Of a stretch of DNA of 64,000 nt, positions 25,150 through 40,330 are shown piece after piece; positions within the stretch are counted from its first letter, which is position 1, and each line of letters starts with the position of its first letter. Source of the DNA: Squalus acanthias (Eukaryota); assembly GCA_030390025.1 (NCBI GenBank), contig CM059431.1, positions 126,048,001 to 126,112,000 on the forward strand, written 5' to 3'. The notes beneath the pieces are model-generated. The model worked only from the letters and a program-made list of their open reading frames with translations. It had not been told where the DNA came from and ran no database searches. The translations under genes and the position numbers were made by a program.

Positions 25150-26353
25150 AATAATTGAACACTGAGAATTAAGAGTTGACATGACAGAAATCAACTCATT
25201 CTGCTTGACAATTTGTTTAAGAACCTAAAAAGGAAGATACTACAGATGCTGGTAACTCAAAATAGAACAGAAAATGTTGTCAGAACTCTGGGTGTTGCTG
25301 AGTTATTTCAGCATTTTCTCTTTTTCTTTGTTCAGAAATCCAATATTCTGGAGGAAGAAGCACCAGAGAGAAACAGTTATAACCGAGATTGTAGTAAGCC
25401 AGAGAGCTAAATAATACAAAGCATTAAACCAGTACTGGTAACTAACTCGGCTGACAACTCCTCCGCCTTCTAGATAACTTGATGTAGTCAGTCACAGTGA
25501 CTTACAAAGCTTTATGTAGGTCTCAGCTCCTGTTCTCATTATTCATATTTATGTTTCTCACATCTCCAAAGCATGACATTTAAAAAGTAATTTACAGACT
25601 GTTATACTAGGGAAGAAAAGGTTAATTGTATAGTTTTGTATTTTCTTTTAAATTGATTGTTCTTTGGTTCCTAAATTGTATTGTACAAGCCTACTGCAGC
25701 AGTTGGGTCATTTTTACAAACATGACAAATTCAGGTATGATTTTTTATTCTCATCAATTTTCTCTGGAGTTTCCCTCCCTTCCCTTCCTTTTCTGAATAT
25801 ATTAACTTCCTGCTGGGGTCGATTAGAGGGCACTGGCAGCCCTCTAGCACCTTGCCCAAGTAACCATTGTTCACCTCTGAGCCATGACAGTGAGGGCTGC
25901 AAAGCTATTGCAAGACTATTCATCTGTGAGACCGAGCTAAATCTATCTTCAGCTGACATCCACATACATGTGGTTTCAGCAGAGAATGTTTGATTGCAAA
26001 CAGGAGCAAAAACAGGATTGCTGAGGCCAATTAAAACAACACTACTGCCAACCCAGCTAAGATTAACTAACTCGCCACAGACTGTGGTTCAAACCTGAGA
26101 CCATCTCGGTCTACATGGTTGAGCCACTCGTTGGCTAGACTTGGCAAACAGCCTGAACCGTAGGTTTCTAGAAAGAACAGGGAACTTCAAATATAGAAAC
26201 TCTCAGATTTTTATAACATTGATACAACTAGGGGTTGTAGAATTCGCAATTATCGCGATTTCATTTTAATAAGGAGAAAACACAAGTTTCGTTCAAAACA
26301 GCTTTTATTTCAACGGAATGCTGTCAGGTTTAAATTGGACACAAGCAGCCTGT

Positions 26354-26834
26354 AAAATGGCCGCCGCACCGCGTGACAGAACATTCGAGACTTTTCGGCA
26401 GGCAGACAAGATGGCGTTCCAATAAACATTTTTGCAGGATCGATAACGATTCAGCACAGTGAAGACAATACACAGGACATTATGGGTTTACAGTATAAAC
26501 ATCGATACTGGGATCGGTCTCCCAGGTACAAAGGAAAGCCATCAAGGGCCCATCCAAAGGACATTAATATGTAAACTCCCAACGGCTCTACGATGAGAGA
26601 GCCGTTAGCAGGTAGTTATACAGGACACTTGGAAGCCCCAAACCCCTCCAGGGGGAACACCGACCGATTTGACAATGGGAGAAATATTAACAGGTACTCA
26701 AACATTCAGGAGTAGCCCCGAAACCCATTAAGGACAGAGATCACCCATACAGGACATTTTTTTGGGCGCCAAACCTTAAACAAAAGAATGGACATTGTAG
26801 TTGGGCGGGAAACGGAAGAACTGTGCACTATAAT
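26354..26834 (+). promoter_or_regulatory. Candidate LTR U3 promoter/enhancer
   Basis: YY1-like AAAATGGCCGCC (26354) and CAAGATGGCG (26407), CCAAT 26419, TATAAA 26494, GC box 26803, TATAAT 26829, recurring AGGACA motif. Confidence 0.5.
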
Positions 26835-27013
26835 TGCAGGCCCAAACCGTCCATTCGCTCTCTTGCCTCGTGTTCGTGACTCTTGCCGCTTGCTGCTGTT
26901 ATCATCGTGGCTGCTCCTGTGTTTTATCCGGTCGATTCGTAACCTCGTGGCTGCTCCTGGGTAAAAGACTGTTGCAAAGACCTATGTTGGTAGCTGGCAG
27001 CGGAACCAAAGGC

Positions 27014-27068
27014 CCGAGATGAGATGAGATGAGATGAGATGAGAGGAGATGAGAGGAGAAGAGAAGAA
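27014..27068 (+). repeat. (GAGAT)n/purine microsatellite inside the LTR (also at ~38020-38074)
   Basis: GAGATGAGATGAGATGAGATGAGATGAGAGGAGATGAGAGGAGAAGAGAAG. Confidence 0.9.
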
Positions 27069-27868
27069 GACCTTATCCATCGCCACGGTCAGTAAATCCC
27101 GACCGCGCCTGTAGGTCGATCAGCCAAGTCTTCTCGACAGGAAGTTTTCTTCTTTAACAAGACATATTGCATCGACGATAACTGGACTGTGCAAACACAT
27201 CGTATCAGCGATATTGACAACGGTGCTCCACCATACCCTGTATCCAACCAACAGAGGTCTTCACTACAGCGGACGGTCCAGCCGACTGACCGAGCAGCAG
27301 AAGCAGTAAACAAGTGGGACCAGGAGATCTCCTGACCAACACGTGGGTGCTGCGGTGAAAAACATCCGATCAGCTATTCGGGATTTTCTCCGAGTTATTA
27401 CGAGTGGTGAGCATGAGTCTCGGGATCCTACGAAGCTAGTTTTAGGATAGTTATTGATAGGGGAGGGTTGAAGTTTAAGGATATTTGTAATGTGTGCCCT
27501 ATTTACGTTGTGCTGGTCGTTCCTCGTTTCCCTAAGAGTGATTATAACTGGTTGTAAGATTGTACTGTCATTAATCTGTGCATATGACATGTATTTCATA
27601 ATTTTAAGTATCATGCAATAAAGATTTTCCATTTCGTACCGTTCAAACCAAGTCTACATGAGTTTTATCTCCATTACTGCTCTCGCATCTAAGTCCAGTG
27701 TCTAGAACCGTAAGGGAGAGTGATTCGAACCACTCACAGGGGTGTCTAGTGTTCCCAGACTGGCTGGAGACCAGGCCTAGACCCGCACTGACATACAGGC
27801 TGCACAGAGCCGCGTGAACCTCACAGGCCACGAGACACGCAGGGTCAGGAGAGTATCCCTTACAGAAA

Positions 27869-29680
27869 ATGGCGACCGCGGCAGGACACTGGCAGCGAGA
27901 GGGTAGTGTGTTAGATTTTGGAATGACTGTACGAAATGTGATGCAGGAAAAGATAGCGGATTACGTATTTGGAAAGGTTAATCTAACGAAAAAGTGGATA
28001 AGCGAACTGTTAGCGGATAAGAGCCCACTAGAGGCAGCTGAAAGGTGGACGGATAGTAAGGAGCATAAAAAGGCAGTTGAGAAAGCAGTCTGGCTTATGT
28101 GCTACAAAAGGCAGGTTCAGATTTCAAACCAGACCAATACAGCGCTAACCGCTCGAATCAAGCATCTAGAGGAGGAAATGGAGGAGAAGGTTTCTGGAGG
28201 GGAGGTGCTCATTAAGAGTTTAAATGAGTTACGCCAGGAAAGCCAGGAAGTCTCCAGTTACCTTAAAACAAGGGTAGAGTATCTCGAGTGCCAGATCACT
28301 GAAGCAAAATTAAACGAGAGTAGGATGAAGGAAAGATGTAACCGTCAAGCTGCCCAGATAAGAACTCAAGAAGAGAGCTTAATGGGGGTTAGGTCGGCGT
28401 ATAAGTTGGCCCTTGAGGATAAGTTTCAGGGAGCCGACCATAGCGCCTGCGAAAAAGAGATAGAGAGCCTCAAAAAGGCCGTGAATAATGCGAACGGCAT
28501 GGTGTGCCTTATTAATCCGTCGGCACGCCAGCCGCTAGTAAATGAGAGATTTAGAAATTCCCCACCAAGTAAAGCAGAAGAAGTAGTAGCCACTGCGCCC
28601 TCCGCGCCACCCAGCTATTCAGAAACCTGGGTTAGGGAGGAAGCAACGGAAGAAGCGAAAGAGCCCGTTGAAAAAGAGGTAGAAAAGGGATCGTTGTATC
28701 CAGTAACGGGGATTAAAAGGGGCCCAAGCAGAAACGGTGGGGAAGAACCGGGGGATCTCCTCGGACAGCTGGTGTTGCCTCACAGTTCACATCAGCTGAG
28801 GGCTATGATAAACCACGTAAGGAAGCTGACCGAGATAGACGACCCTTCCGTACATTTTAGGGAAGTTGAGCAAGCCGCAGCCATCAACGGCTGCGATGAT
28901 GGGGAGACAGCAAAAATGCTGCTGTTCTCTTTAGATAGCTCGGTCCTTCAGTGTCTCTCAGGCGATAGCAAGAGGGGTAATAAAAGTTATGAGGAATTGA
29001 AAAATGAGGTCCTAGAAGTAGTGGGAGCGAACGACGGAGGTCCGTTTGCTAGAGTGGGACAGACAGTGCAGATGGAGGGAGAACCCCCGAAGGTTTTTGC
29101 CGACAGGCTGTGGCCAGTATATGAGCGCAGCTGTCTAGGTGCGCCCGAGCGCGAAGATGTGGAAGGCGCCGCTTTAATTCATTGGCTTAGGTGCATAATA
29201 GCCAACAGTTTACCAGCCGTTAGAGAGCAGGCAAAAGCCTGGTTCGATCCCAATGACCTCAACCTTACGGAAGAGTCGGTCTTGAATCGACTCACGTTAG
29301 GTTACCGTAACATAAGGGGTATGGCAACACGTCCCTTTAAGGGAAGAGTACATGAGGTACGACCCGCAGCCCCGGCTCAAAGAGAGTGGCATCAGGAGGG
29401 TAATCGCGCCCCACAGGCAAGTAATGCCTGTTACGGGTGTGGGAAGACAGGGCACTGGCGCAAGCACTGCAGGAACCCTTGGAAGGATTCCAAGGATAAA
29501 AATCCCGCGGTCCGAACCCAGGCGCCTGTCCCGGCTAAGGAAGCAAAGGCACCCACCTCTCCCGAAGACCTCGAGGCAGTGTTAGGAGTCATGCGCAAGA
29601 TGGTTTTGAATGCGCGTGGACAGGTGGCGGTCGCAACCGGCCCCGTAGGTGCCGCAGGACCGTCTAATAGTGCCCCATGA
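27869..29680 (+). CDS. gag: Gag polyprotein (603 aa): coiled-coil N-terminal region, PSAPPSY late domain, probable capsid, single CCHC knuckle
   Basis: Position after LTR/PBS; CYGCGKTGHWRKHC (29429-29470). The true start could be a downstream Met. Confidence 0.92.
   Translation: MATAAGHWQREGSVLDFGMTVRNVMQEKIADYVFGKVNLTKKWISELLADKSPLEAAERWTDSKEHKKAVEKAVWLMCYKRQVQISNQTNTALTARIKHLEEEMEEKVSGGEVLIKSLNELRQESQEVSSYLKTRVEYLECQITEAKLNESRMKERCNRQAAQIRTQEESLMGVRSAYKLALEDKFQGADHSACEKEIESLKKAVNNANGMVCLINPSARQPLVNERFRNSPPSKAEEVVATAPSAPPSYSETWVREEATEEAKEPVEKEVEKGSLYPVTGIKRGPSRNGGEEPGDLLGQLVLPHSSHQLRAMINHVRKLTEIDDPSVHFREVEQAAAINGCDDGETAKMLLFSLDSSVLQCLSGDSKRGNKSYEELKNEVLEVVGANDGGPFARVGQTVQMEGEPPKVFADRLWPVYERSCLGAPEREDVEGAALIHWLRCIIANSLPAVREQAKAWFDPNDLNLTEESVLNRLTLGYRNIRGMATRPFKGRVHEVRPAAPAQREWHQEGNRAPQASNACYGCGKTGHWRKHCRNPWKDSKDKNPAVRTQAPVPAKEAKAPTSPEDLEAVLGVMRKMVLNARGQVAVATGPVGAAGPSNSAP
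27870..27887 (+). other. Primer-binding site, tRNA-Arg(TCG)
   Basis: TGGCGACCGCGGCAGGAC is complementary to ..GTCCTGCCGCGGTCG-CCA, the vertebrate tRNA-Arg(TCG) 3' end as I recall it; lies 5 nt (GAAAA) after the LTR. Confidence 0.85.
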
Positions 29681-32600
29681 CTAGAACCAGCACAGCCCGT
29701 CTACCTGTGTCCGCTCAGCTATGATGCGTGGAGGCGACCTGTGGTGGAGATGGAGGTAGAGAAACAAAAGGGCAGTTATTTGTTGGACACGGGAGCTTCT
29801 TGCACCATAATCCATACAGATGACCCTTTTGACTCGCCGCTATCTACCAAGGTCCCATTCACGCTAGCAGGGTTCACAGGGAAAGAACAGGCTGGCACGT
29901 TTTCCCTCCCGCTATCCATTCGTTTAGGGACACTTCGCCTTAAGTGGAAGTGTATGCTAATGGCATGGCAAAAGGGGGGTGGAAGAGGTATTCTCGGGTC
30001 CGATCTGCTAGCGGGACACGGGATCCTCGTGGACCTCAGAAATCACTGTCTCTGGGGGGCTAAAGGGGAAAAAGGCGAGGTAATGGTAATTCAAGGGGAG
30101 GAAGAAACAGGGGTCCTGTGTACCGTACAGCCATCCGGAGGCTACGACCTCAGGCTTATGGTCGCAGATGTCCCAACGGACATGCAAACGTACGTGACAG
30201 ATAATATGCACGCGTTTGCAACCCACAAGCACGATTGTGGGAGGGTGGTCGGGTTTGAGGTCAGCGTAGATGGGGACCCCATGACCCGACCCCAAAAGCA
30301 GTATAACTTCCCCAAAGAAGCAGAACCCGATATGGAGGCAGCAATGTCTTCCTTGGTGCAGCAGGGCGTGTTGAGGCCGATAGCCACACACGTGAACTCC
30401 CCATTATGGCCGGTTAGGAAGCCGGATAATTCGTGGAGAGCCACGGTGGACTACAGAGTCCTTAACAGTAACATCCCCGCCTGCGCGCCCACAGTAGCAG
30501 CAGTTGCTGACCTAATAGGGAGCATCCCAGCGTCCGCGACCACGTTCACGGTGCTGGATATCTCGAACGGTTTTTGGTCCATCCCGCTGCGGCGAGAGGA
30601 CCAGTACAAGTTTGCCTTTACGTTTAAAGGGCAACAGTACACGTGGAACTGCTTGCCACAAGGTTTCCACAATAGCCCCAGTATTTTTCACCAGTGTATG
30701 GCAGGAAGTTTAAAGGAGTTTAGTCAGCCCAATCAGATAGTACAGTATGTGGATGATTTGCTCCTATTTACGGACTCAAGGGAGGAGCACGGACCACTGC
30801 TGGACGAGTTATTGGAGCTGTTAGCGAGAAAGGGTTTTAAAGTAAACCCAAAGAAAGCACGTATCGGTCAGCAGGAAGTAAAATTCCTGGGACTGACCCT
30901 ACGCGCTGGGGAAAGAGCCATAGACAAAGCAAGGAGGGAGTCGGTACAAGAATTACCGATTCCCAACAACGTAAGGGGTGTGAGGTCCTTCTTGGGACTG
31001 ACCGGTTACTGCAGGGATTTTATCGAGGATTATGCGGCCACAGCGGCGCCGCTCCTCCGACTCCTCCATAAGGGAGTAGAGTGGCTTTGGGACGAGGGCT
31101 GCCAAGCAGCCTTCGAGAAGTTAAAAAGGGATCTGCAGACCGCGCCAGCCTTAGGGGCCATAGATGGGGGGAAGGAGTTTTTCCTGGAGGTAGCTGCCAG
31201 CGGAGACAGCTTAAGCGCCGTGCTGCTCCAAGAGCGTCACGGCAAGCTAAGGCCGGTTGTCTATTCATCCAGGGTATTAACGGATGTGGAGAGAAGTTTT
31301 TCCAATTGCGAAAGGCACCTTTTAGCCACGCATTGGGCTGTGAAAAGATCAGCGATCTTCACAGGGCTCTCTCCCATCACTCTCCTCACACATCACACAC
31401 CAACTAAGATGCTTCTGGATGGGAGGATTAAAGACGGGACCGTAAGCAGCGCACGCATTGCGCGTTGGACCCTTCTTCTCTCCCAGTTGGACATCAGAGT
31501 AAAAGGTCTTTGCGAGCCCAGGCTTGCGGCCAATTTGGTATACCCCGGTACAGCCCACCGGTGTTCGGTGGAGGGGGTGTGGGACGTCAACATAGGTTTA
31601 CGGGCCGGGATACATCCCACTGGGCGCGAGATTTATGTTGATGGGTCTAGCACAGTATCTGCTGGCGAGCGACTCACAGGGTGTGGAGTTTATGACCCTG
31701 CGGCAGACCTTGCCCTGGCGATCAAGCTCCCTAGCACCATGAGCGCGCAGCAGGCTGAGCTGTCTGCCGTGGTGTACGTGGTAACCCACCCAGACATTTT
31801 CCCAACCCCATACACGATTTGCTCGGACAGTATGTTCACCTGCAATTCGTGTACGGAATACCTGGCCATTTGGTCCCGCCGTGGATACACCTCCGCGGAC
31901 GGGCGACCTTTAACGGTAAAGCCCTTGCTGGAGAAGATCTTAGCAGCAGCAGTAGGGGAGGAAGGGGAGATTTTCATCCATAAGGTGAAAGCTCACTCCT
32001 CCACAGAGCCCCGTGGGGAGGGCAACCGGCAGGCGGATGCGCTAGCCAGGGAGGGTGCCCGCGACGGTACTTTCTGGAACCCCTATAGAACCGGACCCAT
32101 AGCAGCGGTCCGAGGTGGGGACGGGAATACCGGGAACACCAGGGTAGCATTGCCCCTAGACCTCAAGACCGTCCAAGCCCAGGATCCCGCCCTAAAAGCA
32201 GTCCTAAAAACGATTGCTGAGGGGAGGCAGGTAGAAGGTCCGTACAGTACGGCAACCCTCTCAGTTAAGGAAGGCATGCTGTTCCGCGAGGAGCAGTGGG
32301 TTGTGCCGCAGCAGCACAGGAGGGAATTCCTCCAGTTGGCTCACGAGGGACCAGGGGCAGGGCACCCCGGGCCCGAGGTTACCTGGCAACGGGTAGAGCA
32401 AGCGGGATGGTGGCCAGGGCTCAGGGAACAAGTCCGCGAGTTCTGTGCAAACTGTCTTGTGTGCGCTGCAAACAACCCAGACCCCCAGAAAAGGAAGGTG
32501 CCCATGGGACACGTAAGAAGGGTAGAGGGACCATGGCAGTCGATACAGATCGACTATATAGGACCCCTGCCCACCACCCAGGGAGGTTATAAGTACTGCC

Positions 32601-34183
32601 TCGTCCTGGTGGATGTGTTTTCCAAGTGGGTGGAAGCCTTCCCTTGTCGAACAGCTACGGCACTGGGTACAGCAAAAATCTTGGTCCGGGAAGTGTTCTC
32701 GCGGTGGGGACTCCCCCGTTTCGTGGAGTCAGACCAAGGGAGTCATTTCACCGGCCAGGTGATGCAGAACACCCTCATGCTTTTGGGCATTGAAGGGAAG
32801 TGGCACGTAGCACACAATCCCCAGTCATCCGGGATTGTTGAACGTATGAACCGGACCCTGAAGGAGAAATTGAGGAAAGAGACTAGGAACTCGCCCCAAA
32901 AGTGGGCGGAAGTTCTGCCTTTAGTCCTCATGGGGGTCCGGGCCAGTCAGTCAAAAAGTACGGGGTACTCCCCGCACGAGGTAATGACCGGCAGGCTCAT
33001 GCGAACCCCCACCCATGTGCTAGCCCCGGTGCTCACTGAGGGTCAGCTTCAAGAGATCAGCAGGGACAAGTTCGCCCAAACTCTCTTGGAGCGCCTGAAG
33101 CAAGTTTATGAGCAGGCGGCTGGGAACATGGGAAGGCAGCACCAGGGCAATCGCTTGTTGCTGGAACCCCGCAAAACGCGGGAGTGGGAAGTAGGAGACC
33201 AGGTCATGGTCAGAAACTACGCCAGAGTAGGGAGTCTGGAACCACTGTATATGGGACCCTACAACATTGTAGACAAGGCGAGTCCCATGGTTTACGCCGT
33301 AAAAGTACCTCGGCGCACTAAGTGGTTCCACATAAACCAATGTAAACTGTACCAGCCGGGTGCGCAAGGGAAAACTACAGGGGTAAATCCCGCCAATGGG
33401 AAAACACAGCCCCAGGTAGGACCACAAGGCACACAGGCAGGCGTAGCAGCTTGCATCAGGGGAAGGGACATCCCGGACGATCATGCAGCGTTTTTCTGGA
33501 GTTGGGGGTTAGATGACGAGGACCCCAGGGTACCCTGGTCAGATGAGGATAGTGCAGATGAGCATAGTGATGATGACGGGTGGTTTCAGAGGAACGGTCT
33601 GGAAGGATTGGGGCCGCTAGGTAGAGATCCATACGGGGTGGACACACAAGCTGCAGGTCCCGACAGCAGGAGGAAGGAGCTAGAGGAGGCCGGACCAGCC
33701 GCTATGTGGTTCCCAGAGGTGTGGCCGCCCGCTTTGAACGTCCAGTCCTCAGGGGAGGCAGAGTTCGCGAGTGAAGGGCCGCCTGCTGGGCCGAGCAGGG
33801 CGGGGCCCCGAACTGCCAGCCCCGAGGTTAGGGAGGCGGAGTCAGCGGAGGCGGGGCTGGCGCCTGTGATGGAACCCCAGGTCATCCCGTTGAAGGTCTC
33901 GGGACCCGGTCCGTCCGTCACGGAGCCCCCGCCCATAGCAATTCCCCGTAGGTCAAGCAGAGTACCCCAGCCCAGGAAGACGTGGTCAGGTCCACAGGCT
34001 GCCCCAGGGCGTAAGTTTCAGGTTAAGATAACCCGGGTAGAGACAGGCCACATCGAAGCAGTAACAGGCTGCGGCAGATCAGAGGAAAGGGTCAGCGCAG
34101 CAACAGGCTGCGGCAGATCAGAGGGAAGGGTCAGTGCCCTCCCACCGTCGGGAAGAGCTCGCAGCAGCCTTCTCAGGATTTAA
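29681..34183 (+). CDS. pol: Pol polyprotein: PR-RT-tether-RNase H-IN plus C-terminal extension; in-frame with gag
   Basis: LLDTGAS (PR); LPQGFHNSP and YVDD (RT); YVDGS..AQQAEL..SDS..GNRQAD (RNase H); HHCC and D,D(35)E; GPY motif. Frame is open from 29681. Confidence 0.96.
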   Translation, partial: LEPAQPVYLCPLSYDAWRRPVVEMEVEKQKGSYLLDTGASCTIIHTDDPFDSPLSTKVPFTLAGFTGKEQAGTFSLPLSIRLGTLRLKWKCMLMAWQKGGGRGILGSDLLAGHGILVDLRNHCLWGAKGEKGEVMVIQGEEETGVLCTVQPSGGYDLRLMVADVPTDMQTYVTDNMHAFATHKHDCGRVVGFEVSVDGDPMTRPQKQYNFPKEAEPDMEAAMSSLVQQGVLRPIATHVNSPLWPVRKPDNSWRATVDYRVLNSNIPACAPTVAAVADLIGSIPASATTFTVLDISNGFWSIPLRREDQYKFAFTFKGQQYTWNCLPQGFHNSPSIFHQCMAGSLKEFSQPNQIVQYVDDLLLFTDSREEHGPLLDELLELLARKGFKVNPKKARIGQQEVKFLGLTLRAGERAIDKARRESVQELPIPNNVRGVRSFLGLTGYCRDFIEDYAATAAPLLRLLHKGVEWLWDEGCQAAFEKLKRDLQTAPALGAIDGGKEFFLEVAASGDSLSAVLLQERHGKLRPVVYSSRVLTDVERSFSNCERHLLATHWAVKRSAIFTGLSPITLLTHHTPTKMLLDGRIKDGTVSSARIARWTLLLSQLDIRVKGLCEPRLAANLVYPGTAHRCSVEGVWDVNIGLRAGIHPTGREIYVDGSSTVSAGERLTGCGVYDPAADLALAIKLPSTMSAQQAELSAVVYVVTHPDIFPTPYTICSDSMFTCNSCTEYLAIWSRRGYTSADGRPLTVKPLLEKILAAAVGEEGEIFIHKVKAHSSTEPRGEGNRQADALAREGARDGTFWNPYRTGPIAAVRGGDGNTGNTRVALPLDLKTVQAQDPALKAVLKTIAEGRQVEGPYSTATLSVKEGMLFREEQWVVPQQHRREFLQLAHEGPGAGHPGPEVTWQRVEQAGWWPGLREQVREFCANCLVCAANNPDPQKRKVPMGHVRRVEGPWQSIQIDYIGPLPTTQGGYKYCLVLVDVFSKWVEAFPCRTATALGTAKILVREVFSRWGLPRFVESDQGSHFTGQVMQNTLMLLGIEGKWHVAHNPQSSGIVERMNRTLKEKLRKETRNSPQKWAEVLPLVLMGVRASQSKSTGYSPHEVMTGRLMRTPTHVLAPVLTEGQLQEISRDKFAQTLLERLKQVYEQAAGNMGRQHQGNRLLLEPRKTREWEVGDQVMVRNYARVGSLEPLYMGPYNIVDKASPMVYAVKVPRRTKWFHINQCKLYQPGAQGKTTGVNPANGKTQPQVGPQGTQAGVAACIRGRDIPDDHAAFFWSWGLDDEDPRVPWSDEDSADEHSDDDGWFQRNGLEGLGPLGRDPYGVDTQAAGPDSRRKELEEAGPAAMWFPEVWPPALNVQSSGEAEFASEGPPAGPSRAGPRTASPEVREAESAEAGLAPVMEPQVIPLKVSGPGPSVTEPPPIAIPRRSSRVPQPRKTWSGPQAAPGRKFQVKITRVETGHIEAVTGCGRSEERVSAATGCGRSEGRVSALPPSGRARSSLLRI

Positions 34184-34466
34184 AGGGGCCGCCCTGAGAA
34201 CGGGCGGCATTGTAAAGTTATTAGTTTAAGGTTTTAAGTTTTAGTTTAAAGTTTTAAGTAGTTTTAATAAGTTTAAGTTTGTAGTGTTTTTAACAGATAA
34301 CGACAAATGATGGGAGTTTTAAGGCTAGGTTTAGAGGAAGTCTATTTAGCAAACGTTGAAGTTTACGTGAGGCGAGGTCAGGGGACCCGCTCACCCGTCA
34401 CAAAAGCCAGAGACTTTTTGCGAGGCTGGCTACCTCATTCTATCTGATCACAGGAACCAAGGAAGG

Positions 34467-36818
34467 ATGGAACGACTTCTAGTTTTGCTCGTGGCAATCG
34501 GATGTGGATTGGCCTATCGGGGCCTCACCAAGGATGTCGTGGTGTTTGGATGTTCCGGGGACACGGCCCCCATCGCGGTGGATGGGACCGGAAGACGGAA
34601 GGCAGAAGGGACCAGCACCTATTTCCACAAGGGAAGGTGGCCAGGATGGCTGGGAACGAACTCAACGGAGTATTCCAGCACATCGGGGTTCGCCTACAAA
34701 GAGACTTCTTTAATGTGCCCCAAAGTACGGATCATCGCACCCAGGATCAGCGTCACCGTCGGCAAACGGATTTGTTTGACTTGCAGTGGGAATGTCCCAT
34801 TGAGCCGATGGTGGTGGCTGCGAAAGCTGAGCAAAACTATGAGGAACTCTTCGGTTGAGTGGGAGCGACTGGGTAATAATACCCATCGGACAATTACGGG
34901 GACAGATGGACAAGTGAAAGTCTGTTGGGACAAATGGTGGGAACCAGATGAGGGGATTTATGTTTGTATGTGGGGGTCAAAGTACGTTTGCCCCAAAGGC
35001 ATCTCCATATTCTTTATTAACCAGTGGCAGGATAACGGACAGGGGATGAGGTGGGATGCGAGCACCAGGGGGTGCGGAGCCCCATACTCTCCGATCCCAG
35101 TAAATGCCACTGAGCTCATTACGCGCCCACGCAAAGCCCCGCCCACGATTCCGGTAGTTCTAACTGAAGAGGAAGGGTGCCCTAAAACTAGTAAGGGACC
35201 CGGGAACGGTTTGGTACTGGTCCCCACAGACCAGATACTATTTCAGGGGGTACATTACGCGGTGGCCTCGGTGATTTTAAATCTCACTGAGGTACGGTTA
35301 CCAGAGTGGTGCCCCAAAAAGACGGAACAGTTGTACCAGGTCCTGTTGACCAAGATGTTCAGGCAATTTTACGAGTTTGATTTTGCAGAAATCGATAAGA
35401 CAAGTTTATACACCGCACCGCAGGAAGTTTTGGACCAAGTAGGGAGGCAAAGAAGGGGTTTGGTGAACGATGCGTTCACTGCTTTTAACACAGGGACATC
35501 TGTGGTCAACGCTCTAGACAGTGTGGAGCTGCAGACCCAGATTAATGGTTTAAAAACACAGTTAAAGGATATTCTTACAGATGAGAATAAAGTGGTAGGG
35601 TCGGGTCTGCACGAGGACCAAGCCATGACACTACACTTAAAAGAGATTATAGCAGAGCTGGAGAAACATGCGCGTACGGTAAATGCCCTGATCAGGGAAG
35701 ATCGGAATGCATCCGATCAGGCTGCGCAGAACGAGGTGTGCGTGCTTTACGGGGCGTGGTTACTGGGCGAGGGCCGCAGTAATTTGGAGGATTTAAAACA
35801 AGGTTTGGTCCCGTCCTGGATAAGTAACAAACACCTGCGGGCGCTCCACCCTTTTCAGAATGCATTAAGTCCGTGCCAGCTCAGGCTAGCTTCAGAAGCT
35901 TACCCAGTCCCCGTGGACTGCGGACGTTCAAACCATACTATTATGGGAATAGTATTACGCATGCCGGTTTTGGGCAACACAGCAAAGCCCGCCCCGGTGT
36001 ATCGGGTAGAGAACATTGGTGTCATTCAGGGGGGAGCCCACATTCGTTATGCAGCGGTTCCACCTTACGTCATCCGCTGGGAGCAAACGATGACAGGTAC
36101 AGATCTCTCTGGTTGTCGTGGCAGGGGAGCACACATAATACTGTGCCCCCAGCACTTGAATGCCTTTTTAACACCACAGTGCGGGTTCAGAACGGCTGGC
36201 GCCAAGTCCATGAATTGCACCATGGAGGCAATGGCACAAGATCATGTGCCTCCGCAGGTAGCATACATCGGGGGTGGAACATATTGTGTTACCACTGCAG
36301 CGCAACACTACCAGCATGGAAACCGTAGCCGGTGTCCGGTGAGTGACAGCAGTTTCTGTTTTAAACCCAGGGCTGAAGTTCAAGTAGCACAACAGCGAAT
36401 TATCCCAATCCCTGAACCATCCACTGTTCATCTCACAGTAAAAGAGAATTTTACCGACTTGCAGCGATTTGTCGCACATTTTGGGTACCTCATTCCCCCT
36501 CTCCCCGAGCATTTAACCAAACTTCTGAAAGCCGTCGCGGTGTCACAAAAGCATTTTTATACCTTAGAGCAGAAAACTGTCGAGATAGGTACAGACATTT
36601 TGGACATAGTGGTTCCACCGTGGTGGAATCTGTTCACGAATATTGAAGTGCCCTCATGGGTCAGAATAGCCTCCCACATTTTAGTCGTCTGTCAAGTGTT
36701 TATTGTAGTATACCTTTTGTTCATACATTGTAAAAGAGACAAGCGCCTCACCAAGCATGAGAACACGGGAGAGTGGCGAGAACGTTACGTGCGCGTGCAC
36801 GATGAGAGCGCAGTGTAA
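34467..36818 (+). CDS. env: Envelope glycoprotein (783 aa), F-type class I fusion protein with N-terminal Ig-like domain
   Basis: Signal peptide, RQRR furin site (35445-35456), fusion peptide and heptad repeats, Cys-rich region, C-terminal TM (~36657-36731), multiple N-x-S/T sequons. Confidence 0.9.
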   Translation: MERLLVLLVAIGCGLAYRGLTKDVVVFGCSGDTAPIAVDGTGRRKAEGTSTYFHKGRWPGWLGTNSTEYSSTSGFAYKETSLMCPKVRIIAPRISVTVGKRICLTCSGNVPLSRWWWLRKLSKTMRNSSVEWERLGNNTHRTITGTDGQVKVCWDKWWEPDEGIYVCMWGSKYVCPKGISIFFINQWQDNGQGMRWDASTRGCGAPYSPIPVNATELITRPRKAPPTIPVVLTEEEGCPKTSKGPGNGLVLVPTDQILFQGVHYAVASVILNLTEVRLPEWCPKKTEQLYQVLLTKMFRQFYEFDFAEIDKTSLYTAPQEVLDQVGRQRRGLVNDAFTAFNTGTSVVNALDSVELQTQINGLKTQLKDILTDENKVVGSGLHEDQAMTLHLKEIIAELEKHARTVNALIREDRNASDQAAQNEVCVLYGAWLLGEGRSNLEDLKQGLVPSWISNKHLRALHPFQNALSPCQLRLASEAYPVPVDCGRSNHTIMGIVLRMPVLGNTAKPAPVYRVENIGVIQGGAHIRYAAVPPYVIRWEQTMTGTDLSGCRGRGAHIILCPQHLNAFLTPQCGFRTAGAKSMNCTMEAMAQDHVPPQVAYIGGGTYCVTTAAQHYQHGNRSRCPVSDSSFCFKPRAEVQVAQQRIIPIPEPSTVHLTVKENFTDLQRFVAHFGYLIPPLPEHLTKLLKAVAVSQKHFYTLEQKTVEIGTDILDIVVPPWWNLFTNIEVPSWVRIASHILVVCQVFIVVYLLFIHCKRDKRLTKHENTGEWRERYVRVHDESAV

Positions 36819-37230
36819 TGGGAAAATGGCGTCACTCCCGCTCGCCACGTGCGCCGCGGAAGTTTGTACTCAGTGTAAATACGTTGGAAACTCGACATGT
36901 TTAAGAGTTGGGATTTGTTTATTTTGGTGATGGTGTTGATTGTTTGGTTTTTTGGGTTTTGTTTTTCCTTTCCCTGAATAAAAGATAAATGTACAGGTGA
37001 TGCGTGAGGTATCGGCCTGGTTACGCCGGGAAGGAAGACAAGTGGTGTAAGTTTAAGGGCAAATGATGCCTATGGTGATATAAAGTGTGATTTTCTTGGG
37101 AAATAAGGACGACACAGAGACCCTAGTGAAGTTAAAATTTTATGGGATTAATTTACTGGATTCGGAGTGAAATCGAGATAAGATTGCTCACCACTGAGTT
37201 TTTGATACGATAAGCGGAGTTATTCGCATC

Positions 37231-37242
37231 AACAGGAGGGAC
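37231..37242 (+). other. Polypurine tract
   Basis: AACAGGAGGGAC immediately before the 3' LTR TG. Confidence 0.8.
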
Positions 37243-38870
37243 TGTAGAATTCGCAATTATCGCGATTTCATTTTAATAAGGAGAAAACACAAGTTTCGTT
37301 CAAAACAGCTTTTATTTCAACGGAATGCTGTCAGGTTTAAATTGGACACAAGCAGCCTGTAAAATGGCCGCCGCACCGCGTGACAGAACATTCGAGACTT
37401 TTCGGCAGGCAGACAAGATGGCGTTCCAATAAACATTTTTGCAGGATCGATAACGATTCAGCACAGTGAAGACAATACACAGGACATTATGGGTTTACAG
37501 TATAAACATCGATACTGGGATCGGTCTCCCAGGTACAAAGGAAAGCCATCAAGGGCCCATCCAAAGGACATTAATATGTAAACTCCCAACGGCTCTACGA
37601 TGAGAGAGCCGTTAGCAGGTAGTTATACAGGACACTTGGAAGCCCCAAACCCCTCCAGGGGGAACACCGACCGATTTGACAATGGGAGAAATATTAACAG
37701 GTACTCAAACATTCAGGAGTAGCCCCGAAACCCATTAAGGACAGAGATCACCCATACAGGACATTTTTTGGGCGCCAAACCTTAAACAAAAGAATGGACA
37801 TTGTAGTTGGGCGGGAAACGGAAGAACTGTGCACTATAATTGCAGGCCCAAACCGTCCATTCGCTCTCTTGCCTCGTGTTCGTGACTCTTGCCGCTTGCT
37901 GCTGTTATCATCGTGGCTGCTCCTGTGTTTTATCCGGTCGATTCGTAACCTCGTGGCTGCTCCTGGGTAAAAGACTGTTGCAAAGACCTATGTTGGTAGC
38001 TGGCAGCGGAACCAAAGGCCCGAGATGAGATGAGATGAGATGAGATGAGAGGAGATGAGAGGAGAAGAGAAGAAGACCTTATCCATCGCCACGGTCAGTA
38101 AATCCCGACCGCGCCTGTAGGTCGATCAGCCAAGTCTTCTCGACAGGAAGTTTTCTTCTTTAACAAGACATATTGCATCGACGATAACTGGACTGTGCAA
38201 ACACATCGTATCAGCGATATTGACAACGGTGCTCCACCATACCCTGTATCCAACCAACAGAGGTCTTCACTACAGCGGACGGTCCAGCCGACTGACCGAG
38301 CAGCAGAAGCAGTAAACAAGTGGGACCAGGAGATCTCCTGACCAACACGTGGGTGCTGCGGTGAAAAACATCCGATCAGCTATTCGGGATTTTCTCCGAG
38401 TTATTACGAGTGGTGAGCATGAGTCTCGGGATCCTACGAAGCTAGTTTTAGGATAGTTATTGATAGGGGAGGGTTGAAGTTTAAGGATATTTGTAATGTG
38501 TGCCCTATTTACGTTGTGCTGGTCGTTCCTCGTTTCCCTAAGAGTGATTATAACTGGTTGTAAGATTGTACTGTCATTAATCTGTGCATATGACATGTAT
38601 TTCATAATTTTAAGTATCATGCAATAAAGATTTTCCATTTCGTACCGTTCAAACCAAGTCTACATGAGTTTTATCTCCATTACTGCTCTCGCATCTAAGT
38701 CCAGTGTCTAGAACCGTAAGGGAGAGTGATTCGAACCACTCACAGGGGTGTCTAGTGTTCCCAGACTGGCTGGAGACCAGGCCTAGACCCGCACTGACAT
38801 ACAGGCTGCACAGAGCCGCGTGAACCTCACAGGCCACGAGACACGCAGGGTCAGGAGAGTATCCCTTACA
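37243..38870 (+). repeat. 3' LTR (1628 bp)
   Basis: Direct repeat of the 5' LTR, one T fewer in a T-run; followed by TSD GGGT. Confidence 0.97.
38623..38628 (+). terminator. Candidate proviral polyadenylation signal AATAAA (5' LTR equivalent 27617-27622)
   Basis: The only AATAAA I found downstream of the TATA candidates in the LTR; preceded by a U-rich tract. Confidence 0.55.
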
Positions 38871-38907
38871 GGGTATAAATTCTCTGAATAGAGGATAAAA
38901 TTACATT

Positions 38908-39809: not shown

Positions 39810-40330
39810 TGGTTTCCCAGTACAAAGAAGGATATACTTGCATTGGAAGCAGTTCAGAGAAGGTTCACGAGGTTGATTCCGGAGATGAAGGAGTTGTCTT
39901 ATGAAGAAAGGTTGAGCAGGTTGGGCCTATACTCATTGGAGTTTAGAAGAATGAGAGGGGATCTTATTGAAACATATAAGATTCTGAAGGGGCTTGACAG
40001 GGTACATGCAGAGAGGATGTTTCCCCTCGTGGGGGAATCTAGAACTAGGGGGCATAATTTCAGAATAAGGGGGCACCCTTTTAAATCGGAAATGAGGAGG
40101 AATTTCTTCTCTCAGAGGGTTGTAAATCTTTGGAATTCTCTTCTCCAGAGAGCTGTGTCATTGAATATATTTAAGGTGGAGATAGTCAGATTTTTGAATG
40201 GTAAGGGAGTCAAGTGTTATGGGGAGTGGGCAGGGAAGTGGAGTTGAGTCCAAGATCAGATCAGCCATGATCTTATTGAATGGTGGAGCAGGCGCGAGGA
40301 GCCAATTGACCTACTTCTGCTCCTATGTCT
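39810..40330 (+). mobile_element. CR1 LINE 3' fragment
   Basis: EAVQRRFTRLIPEMKELSYEERLSRLGLYSLEFRRMRGDLIETYKI. Confidence 0.9.

Follow-up and report, generated by a model that had tools for sequence, protein, structure and literature searches.

A predicted immunoglobulin-like domain in the N-terminal extension of the F-type envelope protein of a provirus from Squalus acanthias

The env gene and its product

The DNA analysed, called here the window, is a stretch of 64,000 nucleotides from Squalus acanthias (NCBI GenBank assembly GCA_030390025.1, contig CM059431.1, positions 126,048,001 to 126,112,000 of the forward strand). It carries a full-length provirus with the gene order gag, pol and env between two long terminal repeats (LTRs). 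The env product has a body with the predicted fold of the fusion (F) proteins of paramyxoviruses, preceded by a signal-peptide-like sequence and an N-terminal extension of ~225 residues. Codons 85-184 of env (34719-35018, + strand) had been flagged in an earlier note on this DNA as an immunoglobulin (Ig)-like domain fused to the N-terminus of a viral envelope protein. The viral nature of the protein stands, since its open reading frame (ORF) belongs, as env, to a provirus that also has LTRs, gag and pol. The interpretation favoured here, to which a probability of about 0.55 is given, is that the extension of this F-type fusogen contains a V-type Ig-like sandwich that acts as a receptor-binding head and is an old component of the env clade. 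The features of the locus are listed in Table 1.

Table 1. Features of the provirus and of the env gene, with positions in the window (aa, amino acids of env; RT, reverse transcriptase; pLDDT, predicted local distance difference test)
Feature	Position	Strand	Basis or remark
Full-length provirus, LTR-gag-pol-env-LTR	26236..38871	+	direct repeats 11006-11007 bases apart; LTR alignment
5' LTR, 1630 bp, TG...CA	26236..27865	+	LTR-LTR alignment
gag ORF, 603 codons, one CCHC-like knuckle	27869..29680	+	ends with TGA, in the pol frame
pol ORF: protease, RT, RNase H-like tether, RNase H, integrase	29741..34183	+	Pfam
env ORF, 783 codons and stop	34467..36818	+	third gene of the provirus
Signal-peptide-like hydrophobic N-terminus, aa 1-16	34467..34514	+	read from sequence; model helix 2-11
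N-terminal subdomain of the extension, aa 17-87	34515..34727	+	conserved columns; pLDDT <50 in both models
Putative Ig-like V-type domain, aa 88-176	34728..34994	+	motif, conservation, Pfam Ig_3, predicted fold
Conserved post-Ig stretch, aa 177-205 (W189, W196, C203), and Pro-rich linker, aa 206-237 (N213 sequon)	34995..35177	+	
F2-like segment, aa 238-330	35178..35456	+	alignment; pLDDT 83-92 over aa 240-300; F structural match
Furin-type site RQRR, aa 327-330	35445..35456	+	sequence
F1-like ectodomain, aa 331-732	35457..36662	+	AlphaFold model and F matches
Transmembrane segment, aa 733-755	36663..36731	+	Kyte-Doolittle 19-residue windows up to 2.47; helix 730-765
Short cytoplasmic tail, aa 756-783	36732..36815	+	sequence
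3' LTR	37243..38871	+	direct repeat and LTR alignment

The subdomain that opens the extension has conserved C29, a G-R-W-P-G-W-L-G motif, a glycosylation sequon at N65 and C84. Downstream of the Ig-like segment, the post-Ig stretch and the linker are modelled with a pLDDT <50. A Pro-rich linker followed by the fusion-protein body had been read from the sequence, and this is the order found, with the F-type body coming right after the Pro-rich aa 206-237. The F2-like segment starts at a C-P-x-x-x-x-G-P motif that is common to all env lineages, and RQRR327-330 is directly followed by the hydrophobic G-L-V-N-D-A-F-T-A-F. The F1-like ectodomain has a fusion-peptide-like start, a heptad-repeat helix (383-444), a beta-rich region (477-645) and a membrane-proximal helix (681-708). 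The env product has ten N-glycosylation sequons, with N127 and N137 lying inside the Ig-like segment.

The Ig-like segment of the extension

The residues that characterize domains of the Ig superfamily (IgSF) are found in order in the env translation, as G99-K-R-I-C103-L-T-C106, W115-W-W117, V-K-V-C153-W and D161-E-G-I-Y-V-C167. Cys106, Trp115-117 and the D-E-G-I-Y-V-Cys167 motif lie at the positions where the earlier note had read them, and together they provide the B-strand Cys, the C-strand Trp and the F-strand D-x-G-x-Y-x-C of the superfamily. The N-terminal region was aligned with that of 30 relatives, which are 36-71% identical to the window copy. No member of this set departs from C103, R114, W117 and K120, and at least 90% of its members have C106, W115, W116, C153, G163, Y165, C167 and C175. 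Over the whole extension, the hallmarks of Ig domains and six more cysteines are either invariant or conserved to this level. The pattern goes beyond chance.

The Pfam family Ig_3 aligns env aa 88-167 to profile positions 5-74 of 78, with E values of 0.08-0.43. It is found at E <= 1 in 24 of the 30 relatives (best 6.9e-4) and is the sole Pfam family common to more than one member. A profile restricted to the Ig-like segment aligns end-to-end, cysteine on cysteine, with the V domain of CRTAM in the PDB (E 0.056), and matches FcRL5 (E 0.69) and VEGFR3 (E 0.86) further down; phmmer with the whole env against the PDB gave only non-significant matches, such as JAM (E 0.99) and an antibody VL domain (E 1.2). 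The ESM-Atlas feature clusters nearest to env aa 80-185 are Ig families, at 0.90.

An AlphaFold model of env aa 17-245 was built on the 30 relatives. It predicts eight strands (env 93-96, 101-108, 115-120, 131-135, 141-146, 148-155, 161-171 and 174-180), of which 101-108 holds C103 and C106, 115-120 the three tryptophans, 148-155 C153, and 161-171 Y165 and C167. The hallmark Cys, Trp and Y-x-C thus sit on the B, C and F strands of the model, and the strands are arranged as a two-sheet Greek-key beta-sandwich with a strand number in the range of seven to nine, predicted with moderate-to-low confidence. Comparison with 48,161 chains by VIA-align placed TREM-1 first (Z 7.3, root-mean-square deviation 2.5, 86 residues, model positions 74-166 corresponding to env 90-182), followed by NKp44 (6.9), TREM2, a single-chain variable fragment, the shark antibody variable domain VNAR, CD8alpha, NITR and CD79b; 152 chains have Z >= 5. 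The Foldseek rows listed for the head are antibody, T-cell receptor, VNAR and CD147 domains, all of V-type. A predicted structure other than an Ig beta-sandwich, which would have spoken against the earlier note, was therefore not obtained: the AlphaFold model is Ig-like and its Foldseek matches are V-type.

Several results weigh against this interpretation. The Pfam Ig models all stay below their gathering scores in the window copy and in the 30 relatives, Ig_3 scoring 13.9 bits in the window copy against a cut-off of 30. The family profile of the whole N-terminus gave no match in the PDB at E <= 10 with hmmsearch, while the best PDB match of the Ig-only profile is the zinc finger of ArfGAP1 (E 0.0022), ahead of Ig domains. 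The mean pLDDT of the N-terminal model is 44.5, with values of 53-76 across env 76-176, and the full-length model has 40-60 in the Ig-like domain. No VIA-align match attains Z >= 8, and the range obtained may reflect only a common arrangement; Foldseek gave no match of the head at E <= 0.001, the best being 2.6e-3. Such sub-threshold sequence matches, low to moderate model confidence and modest structural scores would also be produced by a Cys- and Trp-rich beta region of another or novel fold, whose Ig-like spacing pulls both AlphaFold and the profiles towards Ig domains, and the W-W-W and W-D-K-W-W runs are unusual for an Ig domain. That the segment is not an Ig domain is nevertheless improbable. 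Its hallmark residues fall on the predicted strands where they are expected, with correct order and spacing, Ig_3 recurs among the relatives with no competing shared family, and two different aligners as well as the ESM features all indicate Ig. A zinc finger would furthermore be implausible behind a signal peptide and among glycosylation sites; the ArfGAP1 match was judged to be due to chance because of the C-x-x-C in the B strand.

It is thus probable, as far as the predicted model goes, that env aa ~88-176 form an Ig-like sandwich of V-type. The domain proposed in the earlier note is borne out with moderate confidence by this predicted sandwich, in an extension that the solved F proteins do not have.

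An F-type body with an added head

The full-length AlphaFold model, built with 42 aligned relatives, has a mean pLDDT of 59.6 that rises to 80-94 over most of aa 240-650. Foldseek matched the body in the PDB to F of human parainfluenza virus 3 (hPIV3; 1ztm, E 1.3e-10) and then to those of respiratory syncytial virus (RSV), Langya virus, Newcastle disease virus (NDV), parainfluenza virus 5 and Nipah virus, with 229 matches at E <= 0.001. The best VIA-align match is postfusion Nipah F (Z 11.4, 291 residues) and all 50 rows listed, down to Z 8.1, are F proteins of paramyxoviruses or pneumoviruses. Head domains and a long heptad-repeat helix are present in the predicted fold, and the sequence has a basic cleavage site before a hydrophobic fusion peptide as well as a C-terminal transmembrane anchor. 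Env aa 243-660 can be confidently assigned, by prediction, to the F-type class I fusogen fold, in agreement with the fusogen body proposed in the earlier note. This predicted refolding machine makes up the C-terminal two-thirds of the protein.

The alignments with F start at model residue 243-245 in every one of the 50 VIA-align rows. On the F side, 49 rows start at chain residues 6-38 and the remaining one at 72, in most cases near the start of the solved chain. Since the match begins close to the N-terminus of solved F, env aa 17-242 would be an added head that has no counterpart in these structures. The mature N-terminus does not fall at F2, the F2-like part being preceded by ~225 residues. 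The relationship with F is found in the predicted structure: the Pfam family PF00523 gave no match at E <= 1 for this env or for nine relatives, and another env lineage of the host genome (L066) matches it at E 0.036, with 12.8 bits for a cut-off of 29.8.

Age and conservation of the head

A phmmer search of 1.84 billion representative sequences gave 49 proteins at E <= 0.001, the named ones coming from six sharks, a skate, the coelacanth and three frogs. Eight of the 49 align to the N-terminus, and all of these are env fragments or gene models in which env is fused to a host gene. A skate relative (71% identity), a relative from a sawshark (53%) and a fragment from a metagenome have N-termini of the window type, as do at least four subfamilies of the host genome. 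The older subfamilies of the host genome are 48-61% identical to the window copy and 59-67% identical among themselves; at least three further window-type subfamilies were counted at 48-61% identity. The presence of the Ig-like domain across related envs, which the earlier note had proposed to check, was accordingly observed in the skate, the sawshark and these host-genome subfamilies, while its homology to the N-termini of distant lineages is not significant.

Among the three segments of the extension, the Ig segment has the lowest nonsynonymous divergence (dN) in ten of ten subfamily pairs, with values of 0.05-0.32 that compare with 0.08-0.44 and 0.21-0.61 for the other two parts. The ratio of dN to synonymous divergence (dS) of the Ig segment is 0.07-0.11 in the seven pairs for which dS could be computed. 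Six of these pairs have dS >1.8, so that only the remaining one (dS 0.49, dN/dS 0.11) gives a clean estimate. Judged from these sequence comparisons, the Ig-like domain is a long-standing and selected part of this env clade.

The earlier note had proposed that the domain was captured from a host IgSF protein, acting as a receptor-binding or immune-decoy module. Viruses do capture IgSF genes, and the best fold matches of the env domain are innate immune receptors (TREM-1, NKp44 and TREM2) and include Ig-type domains of sharks and skates, which would fit the recent capture of an IgSF exon serving as immune decoy or receptor mimic. Such a recent event is very improbable. The domain is in register in the skate and sawshark relatives and in the host-genome subfamilies listed above, whose synonymous divergence is near or beyond saturation in all but the lowest pair. 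Nor is it a product secreted on its own: it is found in cis, in the entry protein itself and upstream of the cleavage site. No donor was found: the phmmer search gave only env relatives at E <= 0.001, and a search with a profile of the Ig segment gave six proteins at E <= 0.1, all of them env relatives and none a host protein; the word-based search scored only 8000 candidates, so that the lack of a donor is weak evidence. As the Ig-like domain is old and conserved within the env clade, the claim of capture does not hold for a recent event, which is unlikely, while an ancient capture from a host is possible.

Some of the public gene models retrieved are chimeric, among them the sawshark 'Niban 1-like' and 'zinc finger protein ZFP2-like'. 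Models of this kind, in which env fragments are joined to a host gene or to other parts of an endogenous retrovirus (ERV), are probable annotation artefacts.

More distant env lineages

Env proteins of more distant lineages (a bamboo-shark protein, two further lineages of the host genome and frog proteins) have N-terminal extensions of similar size, directly followed by the F2-like part with its common C-P-x-x-x-x-G-P start. Of the distant relatives, five full-length ones were inspected, and these align with the window env by phmmer only from ~aa 221-237 onward. The N-termini of the distant lineages carry a G-x-x-V/I-x-V/I-x-C motif, then a W and then G-x-I/V-x-C spacing, and the bamboo-shark W-P-x-F-W-x-x-H-x-G-x-I-x-C aligns with the W-D-K-W-W-x-x-x-x-G-I-Y-V-C of the window env.

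Homology of the head to these lineages is not significant by hhalign (E 0.017-0.12, probability 0.5-2.7%), and this also counts against the favoured interpretation. The Ig-only profile gave E 0.017 and a probability of 2.7% with a profile of five sequences, in register from strand B to strand F; the values were E 0.04 and 1.3% with the bamboo-shark fragment, E 0.096 with another host-genome lineage and E 0.12 with a frog fragment. The hhalign comparison that used the alignment of the whole N-terminus was confounded by one full-length row, and a mixed shark/frog N-terminus alignment and an alignment of whole distant proteins were both misaligned and not used for folding. In Pfam, the bamboo-shark fragment gave Ig_3 at 0.098 and Ig_2 at 0.1, and two other distant lineages have no Ig match. 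The frog N-termini (two fragments) have none at E <= 10, a further point on the opposing side, while the ESM-Atlas features of one frog N-terminus approach Ig clusters at only 0.84, to be taken as a lead only. Considering the sequence patterns shared by the extensions, a common origin of the head across the whole env family is plausible.

A more far-reaching proposal is that the head derives from a host V-type IgSF receptor gene, acquired in ancient times by an ancestor of the F-like (lokiretrovirus-type) Envs of sharks, coelacanth and frogs, and that as the receptor-binding module it made autonomous an F-type fusogen that had depended on an attachment protein. It is doubtful at present. If true, the head would be an entry solution independent of the Ig-like receptor-binding domain of gamma-type Envs and convergent with it, in a lineage that still looks recently active in cartilaginous fishes.

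The host genome also contains degraded env copies of the bamboo-shark type, with 66-80% identity and with stops. One of its further lineages has an open env of 784 codons in which G-E-Y-Q-W occupies the position of the F strand, with no Cys.

Proposed role of the Ig-like head

Cleavage by a furin-type protease at RQRR330 would yield an N-terminal subunit composed of the head and the F2-like part. Its attachment to the F1-like subunit would resemble that of F2 in paramyxoviruses, and C282 and C425 are candidates for the cysteines that bridge the two. The Ig-like head, presumed to be membrane-distal, would bind a molecule of the host cell surface and thereby release the refolding of the F-like part that leads to membrane fusion. 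It would thus do the job of the separate attachment protein of paramyxoviruses within an entry machine coded by a single gene. In this scheme the Ig-like domain would be an old and fixed component of the env clade, whether its ultimate origin was an ancient host IgSF gene or otherwise.

Given the Ig fold, the chances that the head is the receptor binder are about even. Receptor-binding regions of retroviruses are usually variable and the strong conservation of this domain is atypical for such a role. F-type fusogens were said in the earlier note to depend normally on a separate attachment protein; this is correct for paramyxoviruses and does not apply to the F-type proteins of pneumoviruses, baculoviruses and errantiviruses, which work without a dedicated binding domain and in this respect also speak against the need for one here.

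The Ig-like domain might alternatively be real but serve as a structural cap, a glycan-bearing shield or a prefusion clamp over the F-like trimer, with receptor contact made by aa 17-87, by aa 177-237 or by the F-like body. In all ten subfamily pairs the Ig segment varies less than the rest of the extension; its dN/dS is ~0.1 and its flanks are more variable. This fits a structural element better than an interface engaged in an arms race, and the sequons N127 and N137 would suit a shield. Membrane-distal V-type Ig domains are typical binding modules, on the other hand, and a binder would be conserved too if its receptor were. With a pLDDT <50 in the linkers, the position of the head relative to the body is not given by any model. 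A purely structural role is less probable than receptor binding, although it is the strongest of the alternatives.

Comparison with known systems

The closest described elements are the lokiretroviruses. Their Env has a signal peptide, an R-x-K/R-R site, a fusion peptide, a coiled coil and a transmembrane anchor and is related to F of Mononegavirales, while their pol codes for a dual RNase H (PMC7947760). The provirus of the window shares with them the LTR-gag-pol-env organization, a pol with an RNase H-like tether followed by RNase H, and an env that is related to F rather than to the canonical retroviral Env, here by predicted fold and not by a Pfam match. Its env has named relatives in coelacanth and frogs, among others, and these two are among the host groups reported for lokiretroviruses (PMC7947760). 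The env differs in lacking a PF00523 match at E <= 1, the one relative at E 0.036 being the L066 lineage, whereas a match at E 2.2e-7 was reported for a lokiretrovirus Env (Wang and Han 2020, PMC7947760). From its sequence features the element is likely lokiretrovirus-like, and likely a member of that group.

The main text of PMC7947760 makes no mention of immunoglobulin, N-terminal, shark, cartilaginous or Chondrichthyes, and an Ig-like head and cartilaginous-fish hosts are therefore not described in that text. The consulted text of PMC9040795 does not mention immunoglobulin, shark or cartilaginous; neither immunoglobulin nor Ig-like occurs in that of a 2026 eLife paper on errantivirus F-type envs or in that of a 2026 review of ERV structures. 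A literature search, supplements aside, found no paper describing an Ig-like head on an F-type retroviral Env, in line with the earlier note, whose author knew of no such architecture among described retroviral Envs. One bamboo-shark relative bears the automatic UniRef name 'Ig-like domain-containing protein', which touches weakly on novelty and is not a description of the architecture.

The resemblance to F proteins of paramyxoviruses and pneumoviruses (compared structures: hPIV3 1ztm, Nipah 8dmj, RSV 3rki and NDV 3maw) lies in the predicted fold of aa 243-660, in the furin-type site before the fusion peptide and in the C-terminal anchor. Sequence identity is only 6-16%, and the head of 225 residues is absent from solved F. 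Paramyxoviruses have a separate HN, H or G attachment protein; the ORFs listed for the provirus from gag to env include neither such a protein nor any second glycoprotein.

With host V-type IgSF domains (TREM-1 1u9k, NKp44 1hkf, TREM2 5eli, CRTAM 4h5s and the V domains of antibodies and VNAR) the env domain shares the predicted strand order, the B-strand Cys, the C-strand Trp and the F-strand Y-x-C, and ~86 of ~95 residues superpose on the env model at 2.5-3 Angstrom. It differs from them by an identity of 12-23% with no significant sequence search, by being part of a viral fusion protein, by its Trp runs and by the extra cysteines C103, C153 and C175, which are invariant or conserved to at least 90%.

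The receptor-binding domain of the gammaretroviral surface subunit (SU) and glycoprotein gD of herpes simplex virus are receptor-binding modules whose core is an Ig-like beta-sandwich. The principle proposed for the env head is the same, with the differences that there is no sequence relation to either, that SU rides on a gamma-type transmembrane subunit and not on an F-type body, and that gD is a protein separate from its fusogen.

Knowledge of F-like retroviral Envs comes from sequence mining alone, and the lokiretrovirus texts consulted do not deal with the way in which these proteins find a receptor. A conserved Ig-like domain, if membrane-distal, is a concrete candidate for the binding module, and aa 17-240 provide a defined fragment for structural and receptor work. 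A fusion machine of paramyxovirus type might thus have a head of its own in cis, a point of interest for the shuffling of fusogens and attachment functions between RNA viruses and retroelements. A young and abundant element in cartilaginous fish, a host group unmentioned in the lokiretrovirus main text (PMC7947760), would also be useful study material.

Organization and age of the provirus

The sole difference between the 5' and 3' LTRs is 1 bp within a T run, and GGGT adjoins both ends of the provirus as a candidate 4-bp target-site duplication. When env aa 17-240 were compared with the host genome (3.7 Gb), 6073 first-look candidates were obtained and all 150 matches scored were 100% identical; 120 of these 150 have the same stop-to-stop open frame of 815 codons as the window copy. 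The provirus appears to be very young and its family highly amplified, the identity of the copies suggesting a very recent spread.

Pol matches the Pfam families RVT_1 (9.5e-36), RT_RNaseH_2 (2e-21), RNase_H (2e-19), Integrase_H2C2 (1.6e-17) and rve (5.4e-15). Its best PDB matches are roughly equal for Ty3 (4.7e-72), RT of murine leukaemia virus type (5e-70) and the foamy virus protease-RT (1.8e-63), at best an indirect hint of how the element is placed relative to lokiretroviruses. Gag gave no match at E <= 0.05 in Pfam or the PDB (best E 0.086 and E 0.07), and its knuckle matches zf-CCHC only at E 0.31 and the HIV nucleocapsid in the PDB at E 0.12. The gag TGA is the only stop between gag and pol, which share one frame (29678-29741); this is the arrangement expected for stop-codon readthrough, not for frameshifting.

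The 5' LTR ends only 4 bases before the listed gag ATG, which overlaps a stretch starting with TGG (27866-27890), at the place expected for the primer-binding site; the true gag start may for this reason be further downstream. No tRNA gene was found in the window. Behind the integrase, pol has a tail of ~280 residues rich in Pro, Gly, Glu and Asp (33341-34183), in which no Pfam family was matched.

No RNA data set is listed as containing env, and no joint between leader and env was found in the provirus-covering contigs of four runs (three guessed to be RNA, one of unknown kind), whose depth cannot be used to rank genes. Fourteen public runs, belonging to 7 organism codes and 8 studies, contain 52-80% of the sampled 31-letter words of env, which indicates that near-identical env sequences occur under several organism labels. 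Just downstream of the provirus, an ORF fragment (39843-40247) resembles, as read from its translation, the C-terminal part of a reverse transcriptase of the long interspersed nuclear element type.

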